From Parcubacteria bacterium C7867-008 (GTDB lineage Bacteria; Patescibacteriota; Minisyncoccia; Phycocordibacterales; Phycocordibacteraceae), in assembly GCA_001189215.1 (NCBI GenBank), contig LFCR01000006.1, positions 67,550 through 131,549 of the forward strand: 64,000 nt of DNA, written 5' to 3'. The notes beneath the pieces were generated by a model, which saw only the letters and a program-made list of their open reading frames with translations, had not been told where the DNA came from and made no database searches. This document shows positions 3,509-32,605 of the stretch, in pieces. The stretch's first letter is position 1, and each line of letters opens with the position of its first letter. Made by a program: the position numbers and the translations under genes.

Positions 3509-3578
3509 CAGGGAAAACAGGCTATATTCGATGAGTTCGCAGTGCCTCAGGCGTGCGCGGTCTGAGGCGCAATATACT

Positions 3579-3652
3579 GCGGTCGTAGCTCAACTGGTTA
3601 GAGCACCCGCCTGTCACGCGGGAGGTTGCGAGTTCAAGTCTCGTCGACCGCG
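3579..3652 (+). tRNA. tRNA-Asp (GTC)
   Basis: Cloverleaf: acceptor GCGGTCG/CGACCGC, anticodon stem-loop CCCGC-CTGTCAC-GCGGG, T-loop TTCAAGT; CCA not encoded. Confidence 0.9.
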
Positions 3653-3666
3653 CAACGTTCAGAAGT

Positions 3667-3700
3667 CTAGAAAGACCGCCCATGTTGGCGGTCTTTCTAG
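3667..3700. terminator. perfect 14-bp palindromic hairpin downstream of tRNA-Asp
   Basis: ctagaaagaccgcc-catgtt-ggcggtctttctag; symmetric, so the hairpin itself cannot indicate orientation. Confidence 0.5.
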
Positions 3701-3728
3701 TTGCAATACAGTGCTAGAATTCCCACAT

Positions 3729-5474
3729 ATGCAGACTGTCGAAATGAAAGAGAGGATAGGGACCTCTTTCGGACCATCATACGCCGTGCTCAATCTATCG
3801 AAGGTAGGATTACGGTATTTCCGCTTTATGATCAAGTCTTCGCCAAAATCTCGATCAAGACTTCTTAAAGTATTCGCTGATCATCCAAATATAGGTTGGA
3901 TATTTTCTGCAACTGGCTGGTTCAATCTGGCAGTGGGAGTTTGGGCAAAAGACAACGCTGAGATTAATGATATCAGCACCTCCATTCGTTCGGTTCTAGG
4001 GAAGGATGACAAGATCGTATACCAATCAGAACTTACCAGTCTATATGGATTTGGAGACAGGCTCATAGGCAAAGACTTTTCACCAATGCCAATTATTGAT
4101 GCGGTATACAGTCCTATAGAACTCACACCTATTGAATTGGATTATATAAAACTCCTGACACTCGATAGCACACAAGACTCGAATGAACTTTCAGAAGTTC
4201 TGGGTATTCCATCTAATGAAGTAGATATACTTACGCAGTCTCTTACCGAGAAGGGAATCATTGTGGGGTATCAAGAGCGTATAAATTACACAGGTATCTA
4301 TTACAAAGTTTTTATAGATACGTTAAGCAAAAAGAATTCCCACGCTGTAGATGTGCTACTGGAAAAGCTTTGGACAGATCCGAAATGTATATATGTAGAG
4401 CGTGCGAATGGTAAATATGATCTAGAGTTCGAACTTATTCTTGCTCGTAAGGGTGATCTTAAGCCGTACCTAAAAGATTTTGGAGAGTATAAAACTGCTA
4501 TCCTAACCGAAAACCTATACACCAATCTCTACCCTCTAAATAAGACTGCCAACTTGCGAGCTATTCAAGAAGCATTGGTAGGGCAGGACGGGCCAGTCAT
4601 TGATTTCCGTAACTCAAAACTATGGTATCTGAACCACCATGGTGCAGACGCGTATCTAAGCATTTATGAGAACCGTGCATACTTTGAGACGATGGAGAAG
4701 AGTGAACTCGATTTGTTCGATGAAGTTGCCTCATACATTCGCACTGGACATGACGATATCAAATACAGCGTAATGGATATTGGTAGTGGCGACGGTCTCA
4801 AGGGAAGGGTATTTATTGAACGACTCGGTGAGAAGGACGTGAAAGGCTATTATCCAATTGATATTCAGCCTATTGAACTTGCGGTGGCACTTCGTACTCA
4901 CCAGGAAGGAGCGTACGCTAAGCATCCTACACTCCTTGATATTGAAAATTTGCCGGCACGTTTTCCGTTAACGCTACTTCCTTCTGAAGAACAGGTGTAC
5001 GTTTTCTTTGGCGGAACGTACGGCAATTTTAAAAGTGCAGAAATAAATCAATACTTAAAACCAATCGTGCAGCCGGGCATAGAGATGCTTATCTCGATGC
5101 CGATCATAACTGAAGGTAAGACGGAAGAAGAGATCATTGCTTCATATACAGGAACAAAATTCCAGGATATGACATTCGGACCACTTGCGCAGATTGGATT
5201 CAAATTAGAAGACTTTGAAACAAGTACGCTACAAGATGATCTACATGTATATATTGCAATGGAGGATCAGCGACTCGTGTCCTCATATATTCTGAAAGAA
5301 GACGTTGTAGTACTTGGACGAACCTTCGATAAAGGGACCACGTTTAAGATGACCTCATCTTGGAAACCTACTCTAGATCAGGTCATCGACGCACTCGCTC
5401 AAGACTTTGACGTTAAGAAGACGTTCCACAATAAGGACATGTCCATTTCATTGGTGTGTGCAAAGACCACCTAA
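3729..5474 (+). CDS. fusion protein: RAM (AsnC_trans-like) domain, full Lrp/AsnC regulator (HTH and RAM), and EgtD-like SAM-dependent methyltransferase (Methyltransf_33-like)
   Basis: The ORF track runs through tRNA-Asp, so the start is taken at ATG 3729 after the tRNA and hairpin. The middle region resembles Lrp/AsnC (ELDYIKLL...LSEVLGIPSNEV...GII.GY). The C-terminus carries MDIGSGDG (SAM motif I) and FFGGTYGNF resembling the EgtD LGSSIGNF motif. Confidence 0.55.
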   Translation: MQTVEMKERIGTSFGPSYAVLNLSKVGLRYFRFMIKSSPKSRSRLLKVFADHPNIGWIFSATGWFNLAVGVWAKDNAEINDISTSIRSVLGKDDKIVYQSELTSLYGFGDRLIGKDFSPMPIIDAVYSPIELTPIELDYIKLLTLDSTQDSNELSEVLGIPSNEVDILTQSLTEKGIIVGYQERINYTGIYYKVFIDTLSKKNSHAVDVLLEKLWTDPKCIYVERANGKYDLEFELILARKGDLKPYLKDFGEYKTAILTENLYTNLYPLNKTANLRAIQEALVGQDGPVIDFRNSKLWYLNHHGADAYLSIYENRAYFETMEKSELDLFDEVASYIRTGHDDIKYSVMDIGSGDGLKGRVFIERLGEKDVKGYYPIDIQPIELAVALRTHQEGAYAKHPTLLDIENLPARFPLTLLPSEEQVYVFFGGTYGNFKSAEINQYLKPIVQPGIEMLISMPIITEGKTEEEIIASYTGTKFQDMTFGPLAQIGFKLEDFETSTLQDDLHVYIAMEDQRLVSSYILKEDVVVLGRTFDKGTTFKMTSSWKPTLDQVIDALAQDFDVKKTFHNKDMSISLVCAKTT

Positions 5475-7292: not shown

Positions 7293-9074
7293 ATGAGACA
7301 TCGTCTTGGCTTCATTGCGGTACTGGCAATCATGCTTGCTGCTGCACTCCCAGCTTCAGCACAATATGACGGATATGAAGTAATAACGTCATACGCCTCT
7401 ACTATGACCGTGCGGACAGACGGAACGGTAGCCGTTGCGGAAGATATCGCATACAGCTTTGGTACTCAAGAACGACACGGCATATACAGAGATATTCCAC
7501 AGAAACGAGTACCAGGAGGCGCACTACCCATTGAAATAGCAGATGTACAGGTTACGGATGAACAAGGGAAGCCGTATACCTTCACTCAAGAGCATGAAGG
7601 AGACAATATACGTATTCGTATAGGTGATCCTGATATCTTGATCCGGGGAGTACATACCTATCACATTGAATATATTGCACACAATGCTATTGGTCACTTT
7701 GATGATCGTGATGAGTTGTACTGGAATGCCGTAGGTACCGGATGGGCTGTACCGGTACTTAATGCGGTTTCTACGGTGGTTATTCCAGGAAGCTTTGTGG
7801 AAGGTCAGTTGTACACGGCCTCCTATTGTGGATACGAGGGTAGCAATGATCCTTGTTCGGAGCCACCATACTCATACGATCCATCTAGTAATCAGACGGT
7901 CTTTACCTTTGCACGCGACGAGCTCGGGCCGTATCAAGGAATGACCATTGCTACCGGCTTTCCTTTAGGAATAGTCACACTCCCCACAACAAAAGACATC
8001 ATTTATTATTATGTCCTGCACTACTGGTATGTGCCTCTTATTGGCATACCAGCAACCATTTTTGTTCTGTGGTTCTTCTGGGAAATAATTATCAAAATCA
8101 TAGCGCTAATAAAGCTTCTCACTAGAGAATTAATTGCTTCTATCAAGGAGAGTTTTGCGATACAACAATATGATAGAACGCACGTTGTGGTAGCTGAGTA
8201 TGATGCAGGCGATATAACTCCTTTGGAATCAGGTTTGCTCAGTAAGGGTATTGTGGCTGATAGCTATCTTTCTGCTGAGCTCATTTGGCTTGCGATACAA
8301 GGGTATATTCGAATTGAATATAACGATGGAGACTATCGATTCGCGCGTACTCAAAAGACATCAGACGGATTGTCCTTATACAACAGCATTTTACTTGCAG
8401 GTATAGCAGACCGTACAACATCTTCGTTGAAAGATGAATTCTATACAACAGCAAAACGAGCTAAGGAACTGGTCACCGAGTCTCTCGTAGAGCGCAGGTA
8501 TATGGAAACGGTTGTTGATATGTCACAGATGCTGCGAAGCAGCTTCCAACATATCGTGATTATCATTGTGGTGGCTGCCGTCTTGTTACTAGTTGCAAAC
8601 ATATTCGGTGCAATCTTGGGAATCATTATTATGGTTGCATTGGATTTAATCCACTTTGGACTTCCGCACCTTACTCAAATGGGTATCGAACTACGAAGAC
8701 GCCTTCAGGGACTCAAACTATATATTTCAGTTGCTGAAGTAGAACGAATCAAATTCCATAATGCACCTGCAAAGTCTCCTGAACTCTTTGAGAAATTACT
8801 CCCATACGCCATGGTCTTTGGTCTTGAGAAAGAATGGGCAGCACAGTTCGAAGGTATCTATACACAACCACCAGCATGGTACACAGGAGACAATCGCATG
8901 GATGCATTCTCAGTGGGATTATTTACCTCACATATACAGAGTCTCTCTTCAGAGACCGCACAGGCACTAACCTCACAACCAGCACCTTCAGGTAGTTCAG
9001 GAAGCTTCAGCGGTTCATCAGGTGGCGGTTTCTCCGGAGGCGGAGGCGGCGGTGGTGGAGGGGGAAGTTGGTAG
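7293..9074 (+). CDS. DUF2207-like membrane protein (signal peptide, extracellular domain, TM helices, Gly/Ser-rich C-terminal tail)
   Basis: N-terminal signal peptide, central and distal TM helices, C-terminal SGSSGSFSGSSGGGFSGGGGGGGGGGSW tail characteristic of DUF2207. Confidence 0.55.
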   Translation: MRHRLGFIAVLAIMLAAALPASAQYDGYEVITSYASTMTVRTDGTVAVAEDIAYSFGTQERHGIYRDIPQKRVPGGALPIEIADVQVTDEQGKPYTFTQEHEGDNIRIRIGDPDILIRGVHTYHIEYIAHNAIGHFDDRDELYWNAVGTGWAVPVLNAVSTVVIPGSFVEGQLYTASYCGYEGSNDPCSEPPYSYDPSSNQTVFTFARDELGPYQGMTIATGFPLGIVTLPTTKDIIYYYVLHYWYVPLIGIPATIFVLWFFWEIIIKIIALIKLLTRELIASIKESFAIQQYDRTHVVVAEYDAGDITPLESGLLSKGIVADSYLSAELIWLAIQGYIRIEYNDGDYRFARTQKTSDGLSLYNSILLAGIADRTTSSLKDEFYTTAKRAKELVTESLVERRYMETVVDMSQMLRSSFQHIVIIIVVAAVLLLVANIFGAILGIIIMVALDLIHFGLPHLTQMGIELRRRLQGLKLYISVAEVERIKFHNAPAKSPELFEKLLPYAMVFGLEKEWAAQFEGIYTQPPAWYTGDNRMDAFSVGLFTSHIQSLSSETAQALTSQPAPSGSSGSFSGSSGGGFSGGGGGGGGGGSW

Positions 9075-20140: not shown

Positions 20141-20211
20141 TGCGGGATCGTCTAATGGTAGGACTGCGGTTTCTGGTACCGTATATCTAGGTTCGAGTCC
20201 TAGTCCCGCAG
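20141..20211 (+). tRNA. tRNA-Gln (CTG)
   Basis: U1-A72 acceptor (TGCGGGA/TCCCGCA) typical of bacterial tRNA-Gln, D-arm GTCT/GGAC, anticodon arm GCGGT-TTCTGGT-ACCGT, T-arm CTAGG-TTCGAGT-CCTAG. Confidence 0.8.
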
Positions 20212-21813
20212 CAAGCTAGGATTTTTGGAGTAGATTTCTCCAATATCCTTTGTATTTCCTAGTTGGTTCTCTGGTTCTAACCTTGCAGAAACAGCGCGAG
20301 CTTCTTCTGCCATGTTTCTTATCGGAAATAACAGATTATCCAATGAAATGCTCAGTTTTCCGTTGGTTAGTTTGTAGTCCGAACCTAATGCAGAGAAGAT
20401 CTCCTTTTTAACACCAAGGTTCTTGTCTGTATTCGCTTTAGAGAAAACAATCGGTGCCTTCTCTGCAAAGTTAAATCCTCGCTCTGCGATCTCTAGCCAG
20501 TTCTCAACGCGTTTGTCAGTATCCTTTAAGAAAGACCATAGACGATCCTTCTCTGCGAGCAATACTTCTTTACGGCTTCGGAACTCATGTTCATCAATCT
20601 CAGAGTTTGAGCGCATATCAATCAGATTATCTATCTTCTTGAGACATGCGTCATACTCGCGGCGCTGGTTTCCAAACATCTGCTCTCGGTCTGTAATCTC
20701 CTTAGCGTTCATGTCCTTTAAACGAGCTACTGCCCATGTGGTGAACTCAGGGGGGATCTCTAGCTTGCTAAGCTCCTCAACAATCTGCTTCTGTAGTTCC
20801 TGTTCCTCAATGGCTTTCTGTGAGCAGTTAGGATCTTTCCGCTTTGTGCAGTGATAGTAGGTGTAATGAGCCACACCACCATTAGCAAGCTTCTTCCATT
20901 TCTCCTCGCCCGTTATAAGGGCATTACATTCACCGCATCGGATCGGACCACGGAAGGTAATCTCACGCTTTCCTTTAGGGCGGGGATTACTTCTTCTGCC
21001 TAGTAGGAACTGTATGCGATCAAACTCTTCACGCGTCATGAGCGGTTCGTGCGTACCTTGGTACCAAAGACCACTTCCAACAGGGTACTCAAATTCCCCG
21101 TAGTAGAACGGGCGAGTGAATAAGTTGTAGGCATTGCTACGGCTTATTTTCTTTCCGCTTGCTGCGCGTAGACCCCAGTCATTTGTAGCTATCTCTAGGA
21201 TACGGGGTGGCGTGTAATCGCCTGTCAGCATGAGGTCCACCATTTTGCGTAAGAGTGGTAGGCGTTCCGTATCGGTATAGATCCTTTTCTTACCCCGCTC
21301 TTCAAACTTATCGTTCTTATAGCCCAGCGGTGCTGGGGCAGGGTATACACCCATCTTTGCCTTCTGCTCAAGCCCGCGCTTCACATCACGGCCTTTCTTG
21401 GCACTCTCGTACTGCGATTGCGAAAGAGCCATTTGAAGCATCCAAATGCCCTCTGGGGAGTTGTTCTCAAAGTGATAGGTGGCAAACTTAAGATCGCTTA
21501 TCTCTCCTGTACGGAGTGTGTAGGTTATGGCACTTGCGTCTACCTCATTACGGGATAGGCGGTCAGGATGCCATGCCAGAAGCCCGTTGCGCTCTCCTGA
21601 GCGCATTCGTATAAGCATGTCAGCAAACTTAGGGCGATTGTAAGGAATGAAGGCACTGCGCTCCTCCTCAATAAACTCTATATCCAGATCTGCAAACATT
21701 TCAGAAAGCTTCGCCTTTTGTGCGGGTATGGAGAGTGCCTGCTTCTCCTTATCCTCAGAGGACTTTCGGAGATAGGCGAAGTATTTAGGTTTGCTCGTTT
21801 TAGCCATACTCAT
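20200..21813 (-). CDS. large serine recombinase (resolvase catalytic domain, recombinase domain, zinc ribbon)
   Basis: N-terminal YLRKSSEDKEKQ catalytic-Ser region and C-terminal CGECNA...YYHCTKRKD zinc ribbon, typical of phage and ICE large serine integrases. Confidence 0.85.
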   Translation of the reverse strand: MSMAKTSKPKYFAYLRKSSEDKEKQALSIPAQKAKLSEMFADLDIEFIEEERSAFIPYNRPKFADMLIRMRSGERNGLLAWHPDRLSRNEVDASAITYTLRTGEISDLKFATYHFENNSPEGIWMLQMALSQSQYESAKKGRDVKRGLEQKAKMGVYPAPAPLGYKNDKFEERGKKRIYTDTERLPLLRKMVDLMLTGDYTPPRILEIATNDWGLRAASGKKISRSNAYNLFTRPFYYGEFEYPVGSGLWYQGTHEPLMTREEFDRIQFLLGRRSNPRPKGKREITFRGPIRCGECNALITGEEKWKKLANGGVAHYTYYHCTKRKDPNCSQKAIEEQELQKQIVEELSKLEIPPEFTTWAVARLKDMNAKEITDREQMFGNQRREYDACLKKIDNLIDMRSNSEIDEHEFRSRKEVLLAEKDRLWSFLKDTDKRVENWLEIAERGFNFAEKAPIVFSKANTDKNLGVKKEIFSALGSDYKLTNGKLSISLDNLLFPIRNMAEEARAVSARLEPENQLGNTKDIGEIYSKNPSLLRD

Positions 21814-21817
21814 ATCA

Positions 21818-23053
21818 TTATACGGCGAGAACCCAGGACATGCGCGTCATCAGTTGGTATCGCTCAATCCCTGCCTCAATAAAGGCGATGCTGTTTGAAT
21901 ACGGTAGGCCTTTGGTTAGCTCTGAGGCCTCCACAAGCCGTTTGGTTAGCCGTTCTGGGTGGTCTGCGCTCCAAACCCTAGAAATCACCCGCCGGACCTC
22001 TTTAGCCCCATTGTCGCGGATAGCACTTGCCAGTCCATAGGAGATCAAGGCACGGTTCAAGCTGTGAGCATTCCCATGCTTTCTGGCTTCCGTGATTATG
22101 TGAGAGAGCAGTCCCAGATCATCTACTGGGCCAAGGAGAGCAAGTTGATTTTCAGGCCTTTTGATGAGGTCGCGCCATGATTTTAAGAGAATGTTTTTGC
22201 ACAGGTCAGGGGTGAATAGATCCTTAAATTTCACAGATGTTTTAGGGTCTCTGCCTAGGTGGGCGTTTATCTCAGAAAGAACTGCTTGGCCTTTTTTAAC
22301 CCGATATTCGTACCTAAATACCTCATGCTTATCTAAGCCGCATCGCTCTATTAAGGCACGCTCCCGTTCCAATCGTCCTTTGTCCTTGCGTTTTACCATT
22401 GGCCGCATCGCATCTGCGATTTTGTCGTAAAAAACTCTCTCACGAGTGCCGGAGTAGATATGCAGCGATTGGCCACCATGTTTGTACTCTACTTTGGTTA
22501 TATCAACTACCTTGCTCATATCTACACGTCCCAATTCATCTAGAACTTCTTTCATTCTTATCTCGGGAGGGAGTAGGACGTTTTTGCATAAATGAAAAGC
22601 AGAGACCTTCGCATTAGCTAAAACCTCACTCTCAATCTGGATACCCACATCCTCAAGTGCCTTTCTAAGTTTGTAGAGAACCTTCTCAAAATCTGCATCA
22701 GATACCTCCTGCAAGCTATTTCCAAATAGTAGCTTAGGGACTGAAAAGGTGAGTTGGATTGTATAGACCACCTCGTCTCGGTCCCTATTTAATGCCTCAT
22801 AAATCTCAACCTTTGGGAGATACTGCCCTGCGTAAGGAGGGTGAAAAACGAAATGACGCAGATATATTGAAAGAGAGCGCAGCTCTGTAGGAGATAGATC
22901 GTGTATTCGCCGGTTGGTTAGTTCAGGTACGAACCATGACCTGTTCAGGATTTTGAACTTTCTCGGCCCAGTTATCTTGATAATTACGGTATCCATAGGA
23001 ACTTCGTTGTTGTCGGTGTTTTTCAAGGAACCCTGTAAGGGCGATTGCTGCAT
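21818..23053 (-). CDS. hypothetical protein of the integrated element (possible replication or mobilisation function)
   Basis: 411-aa ORF 4 nt upstream of the recombinase; no recognisable motif. Confidence 0.35.
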   Translation of the reverse strand: MQQSPLQGSLKNTDNNEVPMDTVIIKITGPRKFKILNRSWFVPELTNRRIHDLSPTELRSLSIYLRHFVFHPPYAGQYLPKVEIYEALNRDRDEVVYTIQLTFSVPKLLFGNSLQEVSDADFEKVLYKLRKALEDVGIQIESEVLANAKVSAFHLCKNVLLPPEIRMKEVLDELGRVDMSKVVDITKVEYKHGGQSLHIYSGTRERVFYDKIADAMRPMVKRKDKGRLERERALIERCGLDKHEVFRYEYRVKKGQAVLSEINAHLGRDPKTSVKFKDLFTPDLCKNILLKSWRDLIKRPENQLALLGPVDDLGLLSHIITEARKHGNAHSLNRALISYGLASAIRDNGAKEVRRVISRVWSADHPERLTKRLVEASELTKGLPYSNSIAFIEAGIERYQLMTRMSWVLAV

Positions 23054-23391
23054 CAGCGTGCAGCAATAACAGCTTTAATCGCGCGGATAATTGCCTCGTC
23101 AATCTCAAAAGGATATTCGCTGTAAAATTCGGCGCTCACATCTTGGATCTCATCTTCACTGAGCGTGGTAGTGCAATGCGTTGCACTAAGTTCCTGAAGT
23201 TGGAAGCGGGTATATAGGGCTGCAATGGGGTAGCGTCTGGTTAGGTACTGCTCGCCTGATCTGCTTACCGGAACAAGGTTAATACTCTCCATGTGCTCCT
23301 CAGCGGCTTTGCTTTGGGCGTTTAACTCTTCCCAGTTAATAGAACGTATATCCTCCATTGAGGCCGCTGCTAATTCGTCATGCCTTTCCAT
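23053..23391 (-). CDS. hypothetical protein
   Basis: Overlapping co-oriented ORF in the element. Confidence 0.3.
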   Translation of the reverse strand: MERHDELAAASMEDIRSINWEELNAQSKAAEEHMESINLVPVSRSGEQYLTRRYPIAALYTRFQLQELSATHCTTTLSEDEIQDVSAEFYSEYPFEIDEAIIRAIKAVIAAR

Positions 23392-23567
23392 ACGTGTGGT
23401 GGTTTATTGGTAATGCATTCTTTTCCCGCCACAGCACGGCTCATTGCCTCAATAAGGCGAACTAGACGTAGGCCTTTATCTAGCGCTTGCGCCTTAGTGA
23501 TCTCAGTTCCATAGTGCTTTTTCCAAAGCTCTTGAAACTCTGCGATGTCCTTATCGGTCAAAACCAT
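23370..23567 (-). CDS. small hypothetical protein
   Basis: 65-aa co-oriented ORF. Confidence 0.25.
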   Translation of the reverse strand: MVLTDKDIAEFQELWKKHYGTEITKAQALDKGLRLVRLIEAMSRAVAGKECITNKPPHVWKGMTN

Positions 23568-23626
23568 ACTGTTTGCCCAGTATGGTTTCTATAAAATTCC
23601 CCGTGCGGTTTTCGGACTAAATAGGA

Positions 23627-24367
23627 CTATTTCCGACTATTCCTGATATGAGCACCTTTTAAGTCATGTTCTAAAATCTCAATATCCACGCCACTTTTTT
23701 GAAGTTCAGCTATAGATACAGTTTTTCTAAATGTCAGAGTGCTATGTGCGCGCTCAGGGAAGAAAGCTTTAAGGATCTCCCCAGTAAATCCAAGAGCATA
23801 TAGAACTTTAGAAAAGCTTTCTTTGCCCAGTTCCGTTTTCATCATCTCCGGTAGCTTTTCTCGCTCAATACGCTGTCCCGAACGCTCAAACACATACTCA
23901 AGGAACCCCAGGTTCTTGCCCGCACCATGAGGTCTGCTTAATAGATATTTGTTTATGTAGACATTTCTATCTTGGATAGATATGGAAAACTCATTCGTTT
24001 CTTTTTGGGCAATCGCGGGTTCACTGCTGTACTGCGAGTACTCGGAATACATCTCATCAAATTTAGGGAAAAGTATGTCAACTAAAAAGCCCTTAGGATC
24101 AATGTCATTGAACATACCTAGACCTGGACTATCTACTATGCTCCCACGTCTGGTGATGTAATTTTCCCGCACCACCCTGAGTGCCTTCTCGTGCCCAAGT
24201 TTTTTGATGATCTTTATTTGGTTTTGTGCGGAAGGATAGGTTTGATTTGGGTGTTCATGCGCAACTTCGTAAGTTACATATTGATCTTCCGGCGTAAGCA
24301 GGTAGTCCTCTTTTAGGCGCTCAATTACTAACCATATTTCTCTAGCAATTTTCTCCTCTTGGGACAT
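23627..24367 (-). CDS. hypothetical protein
   Basis: 246-aa co-oriented ORF; no motif recognised. Confidence 0.35.
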   Translation of the reverse strand: MSQEEKIAREIWLVIERLKEDYLLTPEDQYVTYEVAHEHPNQTYPSAQNQIKIIKKLGHEKALRVVRENYITRRGSIVDSPGLGMFNDIDPKGFLVDILFPKFDEMYSEYSQYSSEPAIAQKETNEFSISIQDRNVYINKYLLSRPHGAGKNLGFLEYVFERSGQRIEREKLPEMMKTELGKESFSKVLYALGFTGEILKAFFPERAHSTLTFRKTVSIAELQKSGVDIEILEHDLKGAHIRNSRK

Positions 24368-24486
24368 AGATACTTAAAATCTACGCTGTTCTGGGGTCTT
24401 TTCAAATAGCGCTTTCCTCGTGCTATCGTATTGACACAATTGAATAGGGCGGCCTAAACCTGCAGAAACCTTCTCGGGCATGGCCT

Positions 24487-24604
24487 CAAGACCGATCAAG
24501 CATAGAAGACCCGTCATGGGGTTCGCTTGATCGGCCATATCGGGAAACCGGTATGCCCGTGGCGGGTCTTCTGTGTACCGCCTCGGTTTACAAGACCGAT
24601 CAAG
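24487..24604 (+). repeat. compound repeat: 14-bp direct repeat caagaccgatcaag (x2) flanking a 10-bp inverted repeat agaagacccg / cgggtcttct
   Basis: Read directly from the sequence; lies between the element genes and the OB-fold protein gene. Confidence 0.5.
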
Positions 24605-24615
24605 AAAAACTAAAT

Positions 24616-25095
24616 ATGGATACGCAATCTGCGTCTGTTAAGAAGCCACTTCTCAAGCGGTGGTGGGTGTGGGTACTTATCGTACTCGTAATATTTATCA
24701 TCATTGGTTCAATAGGCGGCTCAGACCAAACCAGCTCAACAGGCGGAAGTTCTGAGGCCGCTGCTGTACCTGAACCTGCATTCACTCTCACAGCCATACA
24801 AATGGCTTCTGAGTACAAGGAGAACGAGGTCGCTGCAGATGCAAAGTACAAAGGTAAACTGGTTGAACTCTCAGGCACCGTAGACACAATAGGAAAGGAT
24901 ATTGCTGACACTCCTTTCATTGCGTTTGAAACAGAAAATCAGTACGAGATCATCAATCGTATTCAGTGCATGTTCAAGACGGGAGATACCGAAGCACTGT
25001 CTGCAGTAAGTAAAGGCCAGAAAATAACCCTTCGTGGAACAGTATCCGGCGCGCTCGGCAACATCATTGTTAAGAACTGCGAGATAGTTCAGTAG
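24616..25095 (+). CDS. membrane-anchored OB-fold protein (tRNA_anti-like domain)
   Basis: TM anchor then AIQMASEYKENEVAADAKYKGKLVELSGTV, matching the tRNA_anti-like OB-fold signature. Confidence 0.55.
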   Translation: MDTQSASVKKPLLKRWWVWVLIVLVIFIIIGSIGGSDQTSSTGGSSEAAAVPEPAFTLTAIQMASEYKENEVAADAKYKGKLVELSGTVDTIGKDIADTPFIAFETENQYEIINRIQCMFKTGDTEALSAVSKGQKITLRGTVSGALGNIIVKNCEIVQ

Positions 25096-25130
25096 ACGGA
25101 GATAATACGTTACCCCTCAGAAATTAGAAG

Positions 25131-25197
25131 CTGCAGCCGCTATTGCTGCAGGTTGTTTCTAGTGCAACGCCTTGCACTGCATACCCCCTAGGGGTAT
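25131..25197 (+). promoter_or_regulatory. three consecutive palindromes upstream of csoR, including a CsoR-type operator ATACCCCCTAGGGGTAT
   Basis: ctgcagc...gctgcag (25131..25153), agtgcaa-cgcc-ttgcact (25161..25178), atacccccta/ggggtat (25181..25197); the last resembles known CsoR operators. Confidence 0.55.
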
Positions 25198-25208
25198 TAT
25201 TACCTCTA

Positions 25209-25475
25209 ATGAATATAGAGACCAAAAAACAGCTTCAAAACCGACTTAAGCGTATTGAAGGGCAAATCCGAGGTCTACAGCAATTGGTAGATAAAGACAC
25301 ATACTGTATTGATGTTATTACTCAAACCTCAGCCATTAAAAGCGCCCTATCAGGGGTTGAGGATCTTCTTCTTGAGAACCACTTGGATACCTGTGCTTCT
25401 AGTCAGATAAAGTCAGGGAATATTGCGAAGGCAAAGCAAGAAATTCTGGCCGTCTACCGCCTAAAGCGTAAATAG
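25209..25475 (+). CDS. csoR: CsoR/RcnR-family metal-sensing transcriptional repressor
   Basis: [16 protein letters not shown] and the conserved C...H...C ligand positions (YCIDVI, HLDTC); start moved to ATG 25209. Confidence 0.75.
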
Positions 25476-25476
25476 T

Positions 25477-27771
25477 ATGAGTAATCATCAGACGTACCGG
25501 ATTAAAGGTATGCATTGCGCTTCGTGCGCAGGCATCATTGAGCGTACCGTTAAGAAAGTTGAGGGTGTAGAACACGTTGAAGTGAACTATGGGACAGAGA
25601 CCGCCAAGATCGCTTTTGATGAAGCTAAGACCAATCCCCACTATCTTTCCGAACAGATAAAACCACTTGGATACACACTGGTTATACCTACGGCTGAAAG
25701 TATGAGCATGTCGGCTGATGAACACGCTGCTCATACTGGTTTACGCCAGTCCAAGACAGAGAAGCTTGCTGAGATTAAGGACATGCGTTGGAGGGTTCTT
25801 TCTGTCCTTCCGCTTGCCGCATTCAGCATTTTCGTTATGGGGTGGGAAATGGCTGCACAGTTCGGCTGGATCAATACCATTCCGGAGATTTGGTATGAGT
25901 TCTTTCATCACCTCCTGCCGATCTTCGCTACCTACACCATGGTGGTTGTCGGTAAGCCCTACCTACTCGGCTTCTATCGCTTTGTTCGCTATGGGAAGGC
26001 GAACATGGATACTCTTATCGGTATTGGTACTTCTGTTGCCTTTCTCTACAGCTTCGTCCTCACTGCCTTTGAGGAACCACTTAGGCAGTTTCTCAATGTT
26101 GACCAGACCTACTATGACGTAACCATAGTGGTAATCGCCTTTATTGCATTCGGTAAGTATCTTGAGGCCAAGTCCAAGCTCAGGACAGGCGATGCCATTC
26201 AGAAGCTTCTTGGCCTGCAGGCAAAGACGGCGCTAGTCATGCGCGATGGTATAGAGGTTGAACTCCCTATAGAACAGGTCGTACATGGCGATCTAATTGT
26301 TGTGAAGCCAGGCGGGAAGATACCGGTTGATGGTGTTCTTACAGAAGGCAGTTCTTATGTGGATGAAGCTATGGTTACGGGTGAACCTCTACCTGTAGAG
26401 AAAAGAATAGGAAATGCCGTTGTTGCCGGAACCTTGAATACAAAAGGCCACTTCATATTTAAGGCAACCAAAGTAGGTTCAGAGACCTTACTTGCCAGCA
26501 TCATCAAAATGGTAAGCGAGGCGCAAGGCAGCAAAGCGCCTATTCAAGGACTTGCAGACAAGATCTCTAGCGTCTTTGTCCCCATCGTTCTCGTATTCGC
26601 AGTTCTTGTATTTGCGGCATGGCTGTTCTTTGGCATCCCTACATTGGGCTTTGCACAGGCGCTTACACTCGGCCTCACGTCTTTCGTAGGCATTCTTGTG
26701 ATTGCTTGCCCGTGTGCGCTCGGACTTGCTACGCCTATCGCCGTTATCGTTGGAGTAGGTAAGGGAGCTAGTGAGGGCATTCTTATCAAAGATGCAGCTA
26801 CCCTTCAGAAGCTTAGAAGTGTGAACACGATAGTCGTAGATAAAACGGGTACGATCACAAAAGGTAAGCCAGAAGTAGTTGCTCTAGAGACCTACGACAA
26901 TCACTCGGAAGGAGAAATACTGAGCATACTTGCTTCCCTTGAGAACAAATCTGAACACCCTCTTGCAAGCGCAATTCTTGCGTACGCAAAAGATAAAGGG
27001 GTATCAGCAAGTCCAACTGATACGTTTGAAATTATTGAGGGCAAAGGTGTTAAGGGGTCAGTAGGGGGTACGGAGTATTTTGCAGGAAACCCTAACCTCA
27101 TTAGTGATCTTAAACTTAGCTTTGATAACCAAGTCCTTGAAAGCCATACGACTAAGGGAAGGACACCCGTTTTGCTAGCTTCAAGTAAGGAGGTTATGGG
27201 GCTGGTATTAATAGCGGATGCTCTTAAGCCGGAAGCGGCCACAGCTATTAAGAAGCTGCATGGCATGGGAATTTCAATCGTTATGCTTACAGGCGATAAC
27301 AAACAAACAGCTCTCTCAATAGCTAAAGAGGTAGGTATTGATGATGTGGTAGCTGAGGCGTTGCCGGACGAGAAGCTTAATAAAATCAAAGAACTACAGG
27401 CAGCAGGTCGTGTGGTTGCTATGGCAGGAGATGGTGTAAATGATGCTCCAGCGCTCGCACAAGCGGATGTAGGTATTGCTATGGGAACTGGTACAGATGT
27501 GGCTATTGAAACTGCAGGCATCACGCTTCTCCATGGAGACATTTCAAAGCTGGTAAAGGCAGTACGCCTCTCACGCTTCACTATGGCAGGCATCAAGCAA
27601 AACCTCTTCTGGGCTTTCATATACAACTTGGTGGGGATACCGATTGCTGCGGGTATTCTCTATCCGTTCTTCGGCCTGCTTCTCTCACCGGTGATTGCTG
27701 GGCTGGCTATGGCGCTCTCAAGCGTATCTGTGGTGCTCAACTCACTCCGATTAAAAACCGTTAAGCTCTAA
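25477..27771 (+). CDS. copA: copper-translocating P-type ATPase
   Basis: N-terminal [17 protein letters not shown] motif, DKTGTIT phosphorylation site, GDGVNDAP. Confidence 0.9.
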
Positions 27772-27773
27772 TC

Positions 27774-28790
27774 ATGGATACCTACACCTTTCACATTCAA
27801 GGTATGCACTGCAAGTCCTGCATTGCTCTCACAGAAGGAGAGCTGATGGATCTGCCCGAGGTTACTCATGCGCAATCCTCACTCAAGACGCATACCGTGG
27901 ACGTTACTGGTGAGTTTGGCGAACGGACGCCTGAGCAGATCGCGCAGCTCCTTACAGAACCTTTGAAGCGCCATGGATACAGTGTCCATTTGGAAAAACA
28001 GGCGCATAAGGTACGGTGGGCTGATTTCACCTATGCCGTTCCAATAGCGGCTATGTTCGTTGCCGTATTTATCATTCTTCAAAAGCTGGGCATCGTGAAC
28101 CTTGTTGGGGCAGGGGAAATGACTTACACCACGGCCTTTGTCATTGGCCTCGTTGCCTCTGTATCAACCTGTATGGCCGTAGTTGGCGGGCTAGTGCTTT
28201 CAATGTCAGCAAGCTACGCAAAGGAGGGGGAAGCAGTACGTCCGCAGGTGTTGTTCCATATAGGTCGCCTCGCCTCGTTCTTCGTGCTTGGCGGCGTAAT
28301 AGGCGCTATAGGATCAGCGTTTCAGCTCGGAGGGACAGGCACATTTGTTCTTAGCTTCTTTGTTGCAATAATCCTTCTTATTCTCGGTCTCAATCTCCTA
28401 GATATTTTCCCTTGGACCAAGAAGCTTATCCCTACGCTGCCAAGCTCTTTTGGAAAGGGTGTTAGGGGTCTTCAGGGGGCTGCGGGTGTCCTCACACCAC
28501 TCCTTATTGGCGCAGCTACCTTCTTCCTGCCATGCGGCTTCACGCAGTCCATGCAGCTCTACACTCTCACCACTGGCAGCTATCTTGAGGGAGCGTTGAC
28601 GATGTTCATATTTGCCCTTGGAACGCTTCCCGTGCTCGCACTCCTAAGCTTCAGCGCCCTAAGCATTAAGAAGATGCAGACAGGCATGTTCTACAAGACG
28701 GCTGGCCTCGTGGTGATATTCTTCGGTCTCTTTAATCTCATGAACAGCTTGGTTGCTGCAGGACTTATCCAACCACTTATTAGCTTCTAA
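27774..28790 (+). CDS. HMA-domain fused polytopic membrane protein (DsbD_2/TauE-like transporter fold)
   Basis: N-terminal GMHCKSCIALTEGEL metal-binding domain followed by about 6 TM helices with FFLPCGF. Confidence 0.5.
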   Translation: MDTYTFHIQGMHCKSCIALTEGELMDLPEVTHAQSSLKTHTVDVTGEFGERTPEQIAQLLTEPLKRHGYSVHLEKQAHKVRWADFTYAVPIAAMFVAVFIILQKLGIVNLVGAGEMTYTTAFVIGLVASVSTCMAVVGGLVLSMSASYAKEGEAVRPQVLFHIGRLASFFVLGGVIGAIGSAFQLGGTGTFVLSFFVAIILLILGLNLLDIFPWTKKLIPTLPSSFGKGVRGLQGAAGVLTPLLIGAATFFLPCGFTQSMQLYTLTTGSYLEGALTMFIFALGTLPVLALLSFSALSIKKMQTGMFYKTAGLVVIFFGLFNLMNSLVAAGLIQPLISF

Positions 28791-28804
28791 CGTATACTTA
28801 ATTT

Positions 28805-29194
28805 ATGAAAAATTTGCCAATGATCCTCTCGGTCCTCGTAGCTGCTCTGGTGATTGGAGGGGCTATTGTATTTAGCCAGAAACCAGATGGTTCAGGTCAG
28901 GTCGTACAGAATGTCTCTATGGAAGGTGAGAAGCAGATAATTGAAATAGATGCTAAGGGTGGGTACTCTCCTAAGCTCACTACTGCAAAGGCCGGAGTGC
29001 CTACCGTACTTCGTTTAAAGACAAATGGTACCTACGATTGTTCATCAGCGGTGACCATTCCTAGCATTGGGTTCCGTAAGACCCTAGATGCAACTGGTGT
29101 AACTGAAGTTGAAGTACCTTCCAATATTGCACAGGGGACGCTAGAGGGACTATGTTCAATGGGTATGTATAACTTCTCAGTCAAGTTTATTTAA
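28805..29194 (+). CDS. secreted cupredoxin-like copper-binding protein
   Basis: Signal peptide; C-terminal EGLCSMGMYNFSVKF resembles the Cupredoxin_1 C...H/M...M ligand region. Confidence 0.5.
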   Translation: MKNLPMILSVLVAALVIGGAIVFSQKPDGSGQVVQNVSMEGEKQIIEIDAKGGYSPKLTTAKAGVPTVLRLKTNGTYDCSSAVTIPSIGFRKTLDATGVTEVEVPSNIAQGTLEGLCSMGMYNFSVKFI

Positions 29195-29200
29195 GACCTT

Positions 29201-29770
29201 ATGACTCTTGAGCAATATTCCATTCTCCTTTCACTGGGACTTCTTGCCATTTTTACCTTGCTAGTGGTAAGCAGCATTCTGTATGCAGCTGTCCCAGCTG
29301 TTAAGGATCATGTCCGTAAACATTCCTATGCTAATTATCTTTCAGCCATGGCGCTTATCTCAGTTGCAGCCATACTTGGTGCTCTCATCTATCAGCTCGC
29401 ATACCTCACGCCTGTTTGCGAGCTGTGCTGGTGGCAACGCATATTCCTATTCCCAATAAGCGTTATTGCGTTAGTAGCCCTATGGTTTAAAAGTAGGGAA
29501 GCACATATTACGATAGCAATCCTTTCTGTATTCGGTCTCTTCTACGCGCTGTATCACTACTATTACCACTTCCAGGGCTTAGTACTTGGGAACACACTCG
29601 CCCTCCCATGCTCTAGCGGAGGTCTTCTTCCGGCTTGTACAGATAGTCCCATACTGACCTTTGGCTTCATAACAATCCCGTTCATGGGTATCTTGGTCTT
29701 CTCAAGCATGCTGATCCTGGCGTTCTTTGCTCATAAGGCAATGAACCGAGAAACTCAGGCAAATGACTAG
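29201..29770 (+). CDS. dsbB: disulfide bond formation protein B (DsbB/BdbC family)
   Basis: TPVCELCWWQRI motif (CxxC in the first periplasmic loop) and a second Cys pair (PCSSGGLLPAC); 4-5 TM helices. Confidence 0.65.
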   Translation: MTLEQYSILLSLGLLAIFTLLVVSSILYAAVPAVKDHVRKHSYANYLSAMALISVAAILGALIYQLAYLTPVCELCWWQRIFLFPISVIALVALWFKSREAHITIAILSVFGLFYALYHYYYHFQGLVLGNTLALPCSSGGLLPACTDSPILTFGFITIPFMGILVFSSMLILAFFAHKAMNRETQAND

Positions 29771-29791
29771 CAATTGGTATAATTGAGCAAT

Positions 29792-30433
29792 ATGAAAAAG
29801 AACTCAGGATTTTGGATATTAGGAGGGTTGGCGGGTGCGGCAATTGTGCTAATTCTGGTTTCTAATTTTCTAAATGCGTCTCCAGTTTCTAATGAAGTTG
29901 CCGCTCCTATTGCTCTCTCGGCTGATGATCACAAGAAAGGGGCAGAAAATAGCCAAGTTATTCTTATTGAGTACTTGGACTTTGAATGCGAAGCGTGTGG
30001 TGCCTACTATCCGCTCGTAAAGAAGATGGAAGCGGAATTTGGCGACAGAATTACATTCGTTGCTCGGTACTTTCCGCTTCAGGGACACAGGAACGGAGTT
30101 CCAGCAGCCCACGCTGTAGAAGCTGCAAGCCGCCAGGGTAAGTTCTGGGAAATGCATGACATTCTCTATGAACGTCAGAAAGATTGGGGAGAGAAGCAGG
30201 TGGCAACCCCTGAAGTATTTGAGGCATACGCCCAAGAACTTGGACTAGATATGGATAAGTTCAAGGCCGATGTTGGTTCACCTGATGTTGCTGCACGAGT
30301 AAAGCGTGATATGGATGAGGGTATTCAGCTTGGCGTTAAATCAACGCCAACCTTTTTCTTGAATGGAAATAAACTAGCTAACCCGCAATCAGAAGAAGCA
30401 TTCCGATCAATACTTCAGAATGCGCTCCAATAA
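29792..30433 (+). CDS. dsbA: thiol-disulfide oxidoreductase, DsbA/BdbD family
   Basis: Signal or TM anchor, thioredoxin-like CEAC active site (DFECEACGAYYP). Confidence 0.7.
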   Translation: MKKNSGFWILGGLAGAAIVLILVSNFLNASPVSNEVAAPIALSADDHKKGAENSQVILIEYLDFECEACGAYYPLVKKMEAEFGDRITFVARYFPLQGHRNGVPAAHAVEAASRQGKFWEMHDILYERQKDWGEKQVATPEVFEAYAQELGLDMDKFKADVGSPDVAARVKRDMDEGIQLGVKSTPTFFLNGNKLANPQSEEAFRSILQNALQ

Positions 30434-30436
30434 TGC

Positions 30437-31309
30437 ATGAGCAAGCACTCGCACGAGAGTAGTGGAAATATACGAACAGCCCTCTTTCTCAATATTGTCT
30501 TTACGATAGTTGAGCTGATTGGCGGTCTCCTTACAAACAGTCTCGCCATTCTTTCGGACGCTCTCCATGACTTTGGAGACACTATTGTTTTGGCACTTGC
30601 GCTGTATGCGGAGAAGAAGTCAAAGCAGGGTGCAGACGAAAAGCGAACCTATGGCTATGCTCGGCTATCGGTATTCTCAGCACTCGTATCAGGAGCAGTT
30701 CTTATAGGTGGTTCCTTGTTCATCATCTCTCAAGCTATTCCTCGGCTCTTAAACCCAGAGGCGGTACATGCGCCTGGCATGATGATACTGGCTGTAGTGG
30801 GCATCGTTTTCAACGGTATAGGAGCGTATCGCCTCAAGAAGGGAGAAGGAATAAATGAACGAGTGCTCTCCTGGCATCTCTTTGAAGATGTGTTCGGCTG
30901 GATGGCAGTATTCATAGGTGGAGCTTTGATTTACTTCTTCGATCTTCCAATTCTTGACCCAATTCTTACGATCGGCTTCACGCTGTTCATTCTCTGGGGA
31001 GTTATCCGCTCAATGGGAGAGGTAAGCAACATCCTTCTTGAAGGAGTGCCTGAGAAAATAAATCTACAGTTGCTAAAGAGTGATATTCAAAAGATAGAAG
31101 GTGTTCTTGGCCTTCACGATGTGCATGTATGGTCTCTAGAAGGAAAGACGAATGTTCTAAGTGGACATATTGTTGTAAACCCACAAAGCGTAGACGATGG
31201 ACACGCGATACAGCAAAAAGTTAAAGAGATGCTGAAGGATAAGCATGATATTGAACATGCCACGATAGAACTTGAGACCGATGCAAAGTGTGCAGAGAAA
31301 AACTGTTAA
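30437..31309 (+). CDS. czcD: cation diffusion facilitator family Zn/Co/Cd efflux transporter
   Basis: HDFGDTIVLALAL and the other CDF TM signature helices, plus the C-terminal cytoplasmic domain. Confidence 0.8.
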   Translation: MSKHSHESSGNIRTALFLNIVFTIVELIGGLLTNSLAILSDALHDFGDTIVLALALYAEKKSKQGADEKRTYGYARLSVFSALVSGAVLIGGSLFIISQAIPRLLNPEAVHAPGMMILAVVGIVFNGIGAYRLKKGEGINERVLSWHLFEDVFGWMAVFIGGALIYFFDLPILDPILTIGFTLFILWGVIRSMGEVSNILLEGVPEKINLQLLKSDIQKIEGVLGLHDVHVWSLEGKTNVLSGHIVVNPQSVDDGHAIQQKVKEMLKDKHDIEHATIELETDAKCAEKNC

Positions 31310-31431
31310 ATGCAGTTTTACATCCTTTAGATAAGCCATATTTTCATCCCCATTTCTTCATGAAAGCAACATTGACCACTCTCATGGGGAAGCTATACTA
31401 GTGGAACTGGTTAGATACGGTTGTACTCAAG

Positions 31432-31455
31432 AAAAGCCTGTTATGGCTTTTTTGT
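31432..31455 (+). terminator. rho-independent terminator downstream of czcD
   Basis: aaagcc-tgttat-ggcttt followed by tttg. Confidence 0.55.
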
Positions 31456-32589: not shown

Positions 32590-32605
32590 TAAGTTCAACT
32601 CTCTA

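Follow-up and report, generated by a model that had tools for sequence, protein, structure and literature searches.

A conserved gene of Parcubacteria bacterium C7867-008 encodes a 581-amino-acid protein in which a module descended from tandem Lrp/AsnC regulators, with a decayed helix-turn-helix (HTH), precedes a methyltransferase domain of the EgtD fold that retains its SAM motifs and the counterparts of the residues by which EgtD contacts the backbone of its substrate. The explanation that we favour, with slightly less than even confidence, is that the protein is a SAM-dependent N-alpha-methyltransferase of an amino acid other than histidine, controlled directly by the pseudo-dimer of its two RAM domains (RAM1 and RAM2). 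The window referred to below is the whole stretch of 64,000 nucleotides that was analysed, and all features described lie on its plus strand.

The fusion gene and its surroundings

The coding sequence (3729..5474, with the stop codon at 5472-5474) starts at the first ATG downstream of a tRNA-Asp gene, an alternative ATG being present at 3744, and its product is identical to the 'hypothetical protein AB203_02360' of Parcubacteria bacterium C7867-008. The upstream extension of the open reading frame, whose listed start at 3531 runs through the tRNA, is an artefact, as the sequence-only reading had concluded. The tRNA-Asp (GTC; 3579..3653) was identified by ARAGORN and scored 71 bits in Rfam; it is upstream context and lies outside the gene. 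The gene had been described as beginning immediately after this tRNA, but the two are separated by a gap of 75 nt, inside which the palindromic hairpin noticed earlier was recovered as a perfect 14-bp stem with a 6-nt loop (3667..3700). Fold computation gave -26.5 kcal/mol for this hairpin (z = -5.4 compared to shuffled sequences). It is not followed by a T-run, and the consensus terminator scan made no terminator call; the hairpin is probably the terminator or a processing stem of the tRNA transcript. The promoter scan detected no convincing sigma-70 promoter in the stretch that separates the tRNA from the start codon. A functional tie between the gene and the tRNA was considered and dropped, as a tRNA scan of 13 related loci showed that the adjacency is not kept at orthologous loci and as no Rfam elements other than tRNAs were found in the 1-12 kb region.

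The fusion gene is genuine and is widely conserved among ultra-small (CPR) bacteria. The protein has 113 homologues, nearly all of 565-600 amino acids and with a query coverage of 97-100%; more than 100 of them are full-length, with 34-76% identity, and belong mostly to the CPR/Patescibacteria. All homologues carry PF10017. An artefact of assembly, gene calling or fusion was ruled out, since the 113 homologues come from independent assemblies and have the same full length. The AlphaFold2 (AF2) model of the 581-amino-acid protein has a mean pLDDT of 88.7 and a pTM of 0.78, and the three-part order that had been read from the sequence (a RAM domain, an HTH plus RAM unit and a methyltransferase) is borne out by Pfam, profile and fold matches. 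When the ORFs surrounding 14 orthologues were clustered by BLAST, no conserved gene neighbour was found. Because the gene has no operon partners, yet is kept at 45-76% identity across many CPR lineages, this points to a self-contained small-molecule function. Several homologues are named 'L-histidine N(alpha)-methyltransferase' by NCBI; the evidence presented below supports neither this automatic name nor that of 'Lrp family regulator'.

Origin of the N-terminal module

RAM1 (residues 14-110; 3768..4058) has no HTH before it and shows, in the AF2 secondary structure, the beta-alpha-beta-beta-alpha-beta fold of the Lrp/AsnC ligand-binding domain. Positions 13-83 of its profile match residues 75-146 of the FL11/PH1519 chain, within the RAM domain of that protein, and its conservation (0.71) is the highest of any domain in the protein. 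It is followed by a winged HTH (residues 134-187; 4128..4289; recognition helix 162-174), which is acidic and has kept its fold, and by RAM2 (residues 188-266; 4290..4526), which contains the conserved family turn NGKYDxEFE. Together, the winged HTH and RAM2 (about residues 134-266) match solved AsnC/Lrp regulators with E = 8e-7, and residues about 124-247 align over HTH and RAM with the AsnC regulator 8Q90 (E = 7.7e-7), PH0061 and FL11. The order of a winged HTH and then a beta-alpha-beta-beta-alpha-beta RAM also agrees with the AF2 secondary structure. RAM1 has the conserved turn GW(F)N and RAM2 the conserved turn GKYD, and RAM1-HTH-RAM2 adopts a tandem pseudo-dimer fold that can be superimposed on NirDL, a tandem Lrp-like protein. 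Single-sequence Pfam searches remained below threshold for the Lrp parts (AsnC_trans_reg, E = 0.04; HTH, E = 0.03; 14-16 bits for HTH and RAM against a cut-off of 25), so that the assignment of the N-terminal part is based on profiles and folds, by which both segments match Lrp/AsnC proteins. The RAM1-RAM2 pseudo-dimer is predicted to bind a small-molecule ligand.

A profile of the N-terminal module was searched against 1.84 billion proteins and matched 319 proteins outside the fusion family at E <= 1e-10. Among the matches listed, nearly all are proteins of about 320 amino acids aligned over residues about 53-295, and those examined contain two strong HTH_24/HTH_AsnC matches each. Two of these tandem Lrp proteins were traced to an organism, one to a member of the Nanoarchaeota and one to a member of the Woesearchaeota (DPANN archaea). 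Another tandem Lrp gene lies on a contig (L028) that also carries recO and is probably bacterial. The tandem proteins are homologous to the module over RAM1-HTH2-RAM2 (E = 1e-27 to 1e-13) and share with it the motifs P.VGW...G.(F/Y)(N/D)L...WAKD and GKYDLEFE, and the fusion protein starts at the point where their first HTH ends. The N-terminal 270 residues derive from such tandem Lrp/AsnC proteins of about 320 amino acids (HTH-RAM-HTH-RAM), of which the first HTH was lost. RAM1 had earlier been viewed as a stand-alone domain; it does indeed lack an HTH, but is more aptly seen as what remains of a tandem Lrp protein than as a RAM domain acquired separately. Both HTHs of the tandem proteins are canonical and basic (HTH_24/HTH_AsnC, E = 1e-17 to 1e-27), whereas in the fusion protein HTH1 is cleanly gone, HTH2 is acidic and a methyltransferase has been added.

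Decay of the remaining HTH

The sequence-only reading had described the protein as a DNA-binding amino-acid sensor. Such a bifunctional one-component system, in which the HTH would bind DNA and amino-acid-responsive regulation would be combined with methylation in the manner of BirA or PutA, agrees with the origin of the module from genuine regulators and with the long retention of the HTH fold, the first helix and the wing (GVIVGYQER) of which are conserved. However, the HTH of the window protein contains 3 K/R vs 10 D/E (net charge -7), and the mean net charge of this HTH is -1.2 in the fusion family compared to +5.4 for HTH2 of the tandem Lrp proteins. Conservation falls to its minimum for the whole protein in the recognition helix (0.33), and the basic 'VxYRIKrL' helix that is kept in the free-standing relatives is lost in the fusion HTH. 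Moreover, the fusion protein has one HTH only per RAM pseudo-dimer, whereas the smallest Lrp unit that binds DNA is a dimer with two HTHs (PMC2995911), and neither a conserved neighbour nor a conserved upstream region able to hold an operator was found. Judged from these sequence features, DNA binding by the fusion protein is doubtful and the surviving HTH is probably a structural relic; the description as a DNA-binding sensor is not upheld.

A subclade of the family (P0048, P0079 and P0120) carries an additional basic winged HTH at the N-terminus (HTH_24, E = 1e-11), which suggests that nucleic-acid binding matters in at least part of the family. This speaks for the bifunctional system, although it is also what would be seen if the resident HTH were no longer sufficient. 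An unusual mode of DNA or RNA binding by the resident HTH is also conceivable. On balance, we regard a bifunctional regulator as unlikely, with perhaps one chance in several of being correct.

The methyltransferase domain and its relation to EgtD

The remainder of the protein (residues about 267-581; 4527..5471) is a SAM-dependent methyltransferase domain of the Methyltransf_33 family (PF10017; 60.2 bits vs a cut-off of 23; residues 298-579 on profile positions 19-303/304), with the Rossmann methyltransferase core and the substrate-binding lobe of the EgtD-type fold. EgtD is its best structural match in the fold search, at 16-20% identity, whereas the matches to NTM1/NRMT1 are at the level of a generic class I methyltransferase and well below EgtD; the domain thus belongs with Methyltransf_33/EgtD and not with the generic class I folds. 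A phmmer search of the C-terminal domain against the PDB gave no match, and the fusion-family profile does not reach EgtD either, so that the EgtD link rests on Pfam, hhalign and the fold searches. The EgtD profile used with hhalign consisted only of mycobacterial sequences at least 85% identical, and the comparison was barely better for it.

The SAM motif I and the FFGGTYGNF block on which the initial assignment was based are both present. The former, DIGSGDG (residues 350-356; 4776..4796), aligns with ELGSGTS of EgtD, and its residues D350, G352, G354 and G356, as well as D378 at the end of strand 2 (the post-I strand), which aligns with EgtD D113, are invariant in 39 homologues. The latter lies at residues 426-434 and includes GGTYGN (residues 428-433; 5010..5027), the last residue of which, N433, is aligned to EgtD Asn166. 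N433 is invariant in the family, as are Y318 and Y473, and the three align with confidence to EgtD N166, Y56 and Y206, respectively. In EgtD crystal structures, the alpha-carboxylate and alpha-amine of histidine are bound by Tyr56, Asn166, Tyr206 and Ser284, with Asn166 hydrogen-bonding the substrate alpha-amino group and Ser284 contacting the carboxylate (PMC8593015). The invariant SWKP (residues 544-547; 5358..5369) was aligned to S284-C-K-F of EgtD by motif and through a bridging Methyltransf_33 protein of Nanoarchaeota, with a register uncertain by one residue; over its C-terminal third, the domain aligns to EgtD with low confidence. From these residues, the methyltransferase is predicted to be active and its substrate to be an amino acid.

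The invariance of the counterparts of the residues that hold the alpha-carboxylate and alpha-amine also bears on a different proposal, namely that the domain methylates a protein or peptide N-terminus or some other amine, the Lrp module serving as an oligomerisation scaffold or substrate adaptor. Identity to EgtD that does not exceed 16-20% leaves room for such a substrate, and Lrp folds are known in non-regulatory roles, as in the sirohaem decarboxylase AhbAB/NirDL (PMC4145669). The conserved counterparts of the backbone-contact residues and the generic level of similarity to NTM1/NRMT1 speak against it, and we rate this proposal slightly below the bifunctional regulator.

The C-terminal domain was originally likened to the EgtD/histidine N-alpha-methyltransferase family. 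The fold and the SAM motifs sustain the likeness, but not the histidine specificity. At the position of EgtD Glu282, which we take to be the imidazole-binding, histidine-selective residue, the window protein has T542 (motif register) or S543 (hhalign register), and the family has T/V/I/L or S/T/Q/V/C, never D/E, so that an acidic residue is missing in both possible registers. A selectivity role for Glu282 is supported by the engineered tryptophan-binding EgtD E282A/M252V (PDB 4PIP). The EgtD equivalog TIGR03438 scores 36.3 bits vs a cut-off of 290.9, and residues 299-459 alone match it. No egtB- or eanB-like gene (FGE-sulfatase/DinB, EanB) was found within 5 kb at the 14 orthologous loci or, by Pfam, in the 64-kb window (main ORFs in the first 11 kb, all ORFs of at least 250 amino acids from 12 to 64 kb), where the sole rhodanese is of the UPF0176 type. 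Finally, a search with the methyltransferase-domain profile reached only members and fragments of the fusion family. A plain EgtD with a regulatory N-terminal extension, making hercynine for ergothioneine or as a compatible solute, would explain the NCBI names, the best structural match and the conserved backbone-contact residues; against the above, it appears improbable.

Still less probable, to the point that we give it very little weight, is a catalytically silent methyltransferase-like domain acting as a sensor of SAM/SAH or of an amino acid, comparable to the aminotransferase-like domain of MocR/GabR. Enzyme-derived sensor domains likewise keep their ligand-binding residues, and the family is linked to Lrp-type regulators. 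However, with its HTH decayed, the protein lacks a convincing output domain, and the strong constraint extends over the whole methyltransferase domain, including the counterpart of EgtD Asn166.

Unfused genes and a proposed course of events

On a contig of Nanoarchaeota, a gene for a tandem Lrp protein (P0126; E = 1.6e-25 to the N-terminal module) adjoins two Methyltransf_33 genes. One of these two neighbours was compared, and its product aligns to the methyltransferase domain with an hhalign probability of 96% (E = 2.7e-9), as against 22-41% for EgtD. These nearest unfused Methyltransf_33 relatives were found by inspection of the neighbourhood, without the help of the methyltransferase-domain profile. 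Three more tandem Lrp genes (L019, L024 and one on a JGI contig with a SET-domain gene) adjoin genes for other SAM methyltransferases. A methyltransferase neighbour is therefore present in 4 of the 9 tandem-Lrp contexts examined, a Methyltransf_33 gene in 1 of those 4. Metagenome scans for further unfused loci found none. As regulators often adjoin their targets, this arrangement of the free-standing relatives is a further point for the bifunctional system discussed above.

According to the explanation that we favour, the protein would be an enzyme rather than a classical transcription factor, its EgtD-fold domain acting as an N-alpha-methyltransferase on a free amino acid or a close analogue, not histidine. 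The ancestor of its N-terminal module would be a tandem Lrp/AsnC regulator (HTH-RAM-HTH-RAM) such as the one that a DPANN archaeon encodes beside Methyltransf_33 genes. Regulator and methyltransferase would then have been fused in CPR bacteria, the first HTH lost and the second left to decay, so that the probable control of a neighbouring gene would have become control inside one polypeptide. Since the regulator is fused to the enzyme and has seemingly lost DNA binding, it probably controls the enzyme directly: the RAM1-RAM2 pseudo-dimer would bind a small-molecule effector and set the activity or the assembly of the enzyme. A change in activity or oligomeric state upon ligand binding, as well as the allosteric link and the inter-domain contacts that it implies, is what we infer from this architecture. 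The most specific version is more speculative, and we hold it to be about as unlikely as the bifunctional regulator: in genome-reduced CPR bacteria, a transcription factor would have turned into a built-in allosteric sensor, and the former regulator of a neighbouring Methyltransf_33 gene would now gate the formation of an N-methylated amino acid or a betaine found only in ultra-small symbiotic prokaryotes. In a stronger variant of this version, sensing and methylation would concern one and the same ligand, which would make the protein a genuine 'sense-and-modify' one-component system.

In CPR bacteria, biosynthetic enzymes are very scarce and regulators are few. The fusion protein is thus of interest as a metabolic lead to a small-molecule function that is missing from current CPR metabolic reconstructions. 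It also provides a clear and testable case of a regulator family taken over as the regulatory module of an enzyme, the unfused state with its gene neighbours surviving in at least one DPANN archaeon. As to enzymology, knowing the substrate would extend the known EgtD-family chemistry past the aromatic amino-acid betaines.

Comparison with known systems

No characterised example had been known to the sequence-only reading, and our literature searches likewise found none; in particular, they yielded nothing on EgtD homologues of CPR bacteria or on Lrp-methyltransferase fusions. EgtD of M. smegmatis and M. tuberculosis (PDB 4PIM, 4PIO, 4UY5-7 and 7SCF) shares with the fusion protein the SAM motif I, the acidic post-I residue and the backbone-holding residues, the counterparts of Tyr56, Asn166, Tyr206 and probably Ser284 being conserved. 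However, EgtD is a single domain of 321 amino acids, to which the fusion adds an Lrp-derived N-terminal module of 270 amino acids, and the fusion protein has Thr or Ser in the place of Glu282 and no egtA/B/C/E neighbours.

In NirDL and AhbA-AhbB (PDB 4CH7 and 4CZC), the Lrp-like fold is itself the enzyme and both HTHs are kept, whereas in the fusion protein the catalytic domain is a different one, to which the Lrp-like part is joined, the identity between the two being about 10-12%. The NirdL-like_HTH model matches 1 of 17 fusion-family members (E = 0.012), and no haem-pathway genes were found near the fusion gene, either among the ORFs of the window or at 14 orthologous loci.

BirA, PutA, NadR and Ada likewise join a domain of DNA-binding type to an enzyme for the small molecule that is sensed, but theirs are proven basic DNA-binding domains with defined operators. 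To our knowledge, the combination of Lrp/RAM and Methyltransf_33 does not occur among them. The pairing of an HTH-less RAM with an HTH-RAM unit has a parallel in the Pyrococcus FL11-DM1 system, which consists of a full-length Lrp and a stand-alone RAM protein, and in which amino acids bind between RAM dimers and alter the assembly state. The fusion protein represents a covalent version of this arrangement, whereas FL11 and DM1 are two polypeptides with a role in transcription, neither of which carries an enzyme.

The fusion gene, its surroundings and its family

The coding sequence of the fusion protein (3729-5474, plus strand, 581 aa) starts at the first ATG after a tRNA-Asp(GTC) gene detected by ARAGORN and Rfam (3579-3653, plus strand) and a perfect 14-bp hairpin (3667-3700, plus strand; -26.5 kcal/mol, z = -5.4). 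An alternative start ATG lies at 3744, and the first 13 residues are not conserved among the homologues. The listed ORF, 3531-5474, reads through the tRNA-Asp, and its upstream extension is an artefact, as had been noted from the sequence alone. The 581-aa sequence exactly matches 'hypothetical protein AB203_02360' (Parcubacteria bacterium C7867-008). Its neighbours in the window are unrelated (histidine kinase, HTH_23 protein, NTP-transferase, DUF2207 and DUF805 membrane proteins), and the ORFs around 14 orthologues have nothing in common except the fusion gene itself. Similarly, adjacency to a tRNA gene was not conserved at the related loci.

A tRNA-Met gene (2733-2807) is tightly flanked by protein genes on both sides: the end of the HTH_23 gene (2047-2742), stop codon included, overlaps it by 10 nt, and the NTP-transferase gene begins 3 nt past its end, at 2810. 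The DUF2207 protein (7293-9074) ends in a glycine-rich tail (…SGSSGGGFSGGGGGGGGGGSW). Elsewhere in the window, a tRNA-Gln gene (20141-20212) shares its 3' end with a minus-strand gene for a large serine recombinase (20200-21813), and downstream of both lie genes for an HMA P-type ATPase (25477-27771), an HMA-DsbD_2 protein (27774-28790), a cation-efflux protein (30437-31309) and an AbiU2 HEPN protein (32558-33370). The region 20141-33370 looks like a metal-resistance island integrated at a tRNA; GC content showed no clear step across it.

The fusion genes form a real family, with 113 homologues, nearly all of 565-600 aa, at 97-100% query coverage and 34-76% identity, to which the sources give inconsistent names. 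In a scan of species-representative genomes, MAGs labelled Kaiserbacteria, Uhrbacteria, Moranbacteria, Paceibacterota, Peregrinibacteria/Peribacteria and Saccharibacteria carried the gene. Single MAGs labelled Bacillota (33% identity), Micrarchaeota and Pseudobdellovibrionaceae also have it; in the Pseudobdellovibrionaceae MAG it lies on a contig of 3 kb, which could be a binning error. One variant, P0387 (476 aa), lacks RAM2. In a Peregrinibacteria MAG (L015, 5001-6713) and a Moraniibacteriota MAG (L018, 5140-6288) the gene is split into two ORFs, which could reflect a frameshift, pseudogenisation or an assembly error.

Domain architecture and origin of the N-terminal module

The three-part anatomy proposed in the sequence-only reading, a RAM domain without HTH, a complete Lrp/AsnC module and a methyltransferase, was confirmed. 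Pfam placed Methyltransf_33 at residues 298-579 (60.2 bits, cut-off 23), so that the C-terminus was not assigned to a generic methyltransferase. With the single sequence, AsnC_trans_reg (34-89, E = 0.04) and HTH (139-184, E = 0.03) were matched weakly. A profile of 39 homologues, however, matched solved AsnC/Lrp regulators over HTH and RAM, namely 8Q90 (E 7.7e-7), PH0061 and FL11, and a profile of the N-terminal 288 residues matched FL11 in two stretches, one of which pairs residues 13-83 with the FL11 RAM domain. The AlphaFold2 model (pLDDT 88.7, pTM 0.78) showed a beta-alpha-beta-beta-alpha-beta RAM fold (RAM1, residues 29-107), a three-helix winged HTH (134-187), a second RAM fold (RAM2, 190-265) and then the methyltransferase. 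As profiles and folds agree, the N-terminal Lrp/AsnC assignment is settled despite the weak Pfam signals.

Among 1.84 billion representative proteins searched with the N-module profile, the fusion family accounted for 15 at E <= 1e-30, and beyond it 319 proteins matched at E <= 1e-10, most of those listed being of ~320 aa, with profile positions about 12-250 pairing with their residues about 53-295. The ~320-aa members examined are tandem Lrp/AsnC proteins, each with two strong HTH_24/HTH_AsnC-type matches (E 1e-17 to 1e-27); two are on contigs from Nanoarchaeota and Woesearchaeota, and the annotation assigns P0126 to Nanoarchaeota. The fusion protein starts at the exact end of the HTH1 wing of these relatives ('...GIIQGFHAVIDISKIGY' corresponding to 'FGPSYAVLNLSKVGL'). 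The RAM1 domain, read earlier as stand-alone, is therefore a RAM fold without HTH that remained of a tandem Lrp protein after loss of HTH1.

Nine tandem-Lrp neighbourhoods were examined, L026 being too short to count. On a Nanoarchaeota contig (L023, JBHPGL010000012.1, 3001-6975), P0126, the second-best N-module match outside the family (E 1.6e-25), adjoins two paralogous Methyltransf_33 genes (62 and 60 bits), tail-to-tail with both. Their products, of ~490-510 aa, carry N-terminal extensions of ~150 aa without Pfam match, and the one compared is far closer than EgtD to the fusion methyltransferase domain (hhalign E 2.7e-9 versus about 1e-3). Another single Lrp gene lies 2.3 kb upstream. Genes adjacent in one lineage are known to be fused in another, and this adjacency fits that pattern, although in this small sample of nine PF10017 is involved only once. 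At L019 (4866-6940, Nanoarchaeota) the tandem Lrp gene overlaps a Methyltransf_25/11 gene by 4 nt, and the tandem Lrp genes at L024 (2208-4002) and on a JGI contig are divergent from a UbiE-type gene and a SET-domain gene, respectively; to judge from these three, such pairing of regulator and methyltransferase may recur in DPANN archaea. At L028 (504-4981), probably bacterial because the contig also has recO, a four-gene operon divergent from the tandem Lrp gene (DAO, SO_alpha_A3/Fer2_BFD, Fer4, Pyr_redox_2) resembles heterotetrameric sarcosine oxidase or proline dehydrogenase. No such neighbour was present at the other four (L020, L021, L027 and a second JGI contig).

The surviving HTH

Over residues 134-190, the mean net charge is -1.2 in the fusion family versus +5.4 in the free tandem Lrp relatives, with 7.0 versus 11.1 K/R; the HTH of the window protein has 3 K/R and 10 D/E (net -7). 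The recognition helix 'VxYRIKrL', kept in the relatives, is lost. Measured as the frequency of the commonest residue per column, conservation is highest in RAM1 (0.71; methyltransferase 0.63) and lowest in the recognition helix (0.33), whereas HTH helix 1 (0.69) and the wing (0.68) are still conserved. Each RAM pseudo-dimer has a single HTH, whereas the minimal DNA-binding unit is an Lrp dimer with two (PMC2995911). From its sequence the HTH looks decayed, and the pattern fits retention for packing rather than for reading DNA.

These features argue against the DNA-binding sensor first envisaged, and a genuine DNA-binding enzyme-regulator is unlikely. In its favour, P0048 (648 aa; L022, 1108-3054), P0079 (633 aa) and P0120 carry an extra N-terminal basic wHTH of ~65 residues, HTH_24/IclR-like, with a linker unlike that of the Lrp HTH1 position. 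This DNA-binding domain seems to have been acquired secondarily, and for some family members the binding of nucleic acids may still be important.

The methyltransferase domain

The Mycobacterium smegmatis EgtD sequence, verified against the PDB, was aligned to the family by hhalign, confidently over EgtD residues 36 to 208. Histidine is held in EgtD crystal structures through its alpha-carboxylate by Tyr56, Tyr206 and Ser284 and through its alpha-amine by Asn166 (PMC8593015). In the alignment Y318 and Y473 correspond to Y56 and Y206, N433 to N166, W299 to W37, Y309 to F47 (in van der Waals contact with a bound inhibitor in EgtD), D378 to the acidic post-I residue D113, and DIGSGDG (350-356) to SAM motif I, ELGSGTS. 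All six single residues and D350/G352/G354/G356 of motif I are invariant in 39 homologues. The invariance of the residues aligned with the backbone contacts argues against a non-amino-acid substrate with the Lrp module as scaffold or adaptor, which we consider decidedly unlikely. The C-terminal third aligned to EgtD with low confidence, the register being uncertain by one residue; bridging through a Nanoarchaeota Methyltransf_33 protein (96% probability to the family) paired the invariant S544-W-K-P with S284-C-K-F, and in either register the Glu282 position is Thr or Ser, never acidic.

The EgtD-like label holds for Methyltransf_33 membership and the aligned backbone contacts, but not for the histidine type: the EgtD equivalog model gave 36 bits (cut-off 291). 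Among the larger window ORFs scanned with Pfam, none encoded an EgtB- or EanB-like protein, the sole rhodanese being of UPF0176 type, and a plain EgtD is very unlikely. Since a profile of the methyltransferase domain alone retrieved only fusion-family members, the domain represents a separate, divergent branch within PF10017.

Proposed function

Beyond what the analysis shows, namely the architecture and its conservation, the ancestry, the HTH decay and the conserved active site, we tentatively propose, at slightly less than even likelihood, an active SAM-dependent enzyme under effector control. Judging from the aligned residues, it would most likely N-alpha-methylate a free amino acid or near analogue other than histidine; the RAM1-RAM2 pair would probably bind a small effector and, once bound, probably set enzyme activity or assembly state, the HTH remaining as a structural piece. 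That the domain is instead a silent methyltransferase-like sensor is highly improbable.

Both parts belong to known families, and no described example of an Lrp/AsnC module combined with Methyltransf_33 was found in the literature searched, in agreement with the sequence-only reading. The protein is of interest because it is well conserved in organisms of minimal metabolism and its current annotation is probably wrong, and also because the proposed conversion from regulator to sensor is directly testable. RAM1-RAM2 may be likened to NirDL, a covalent pseudo-dimer, and forms a pseudo-dimer similar to the FL11-DM1 pair, but covalent.
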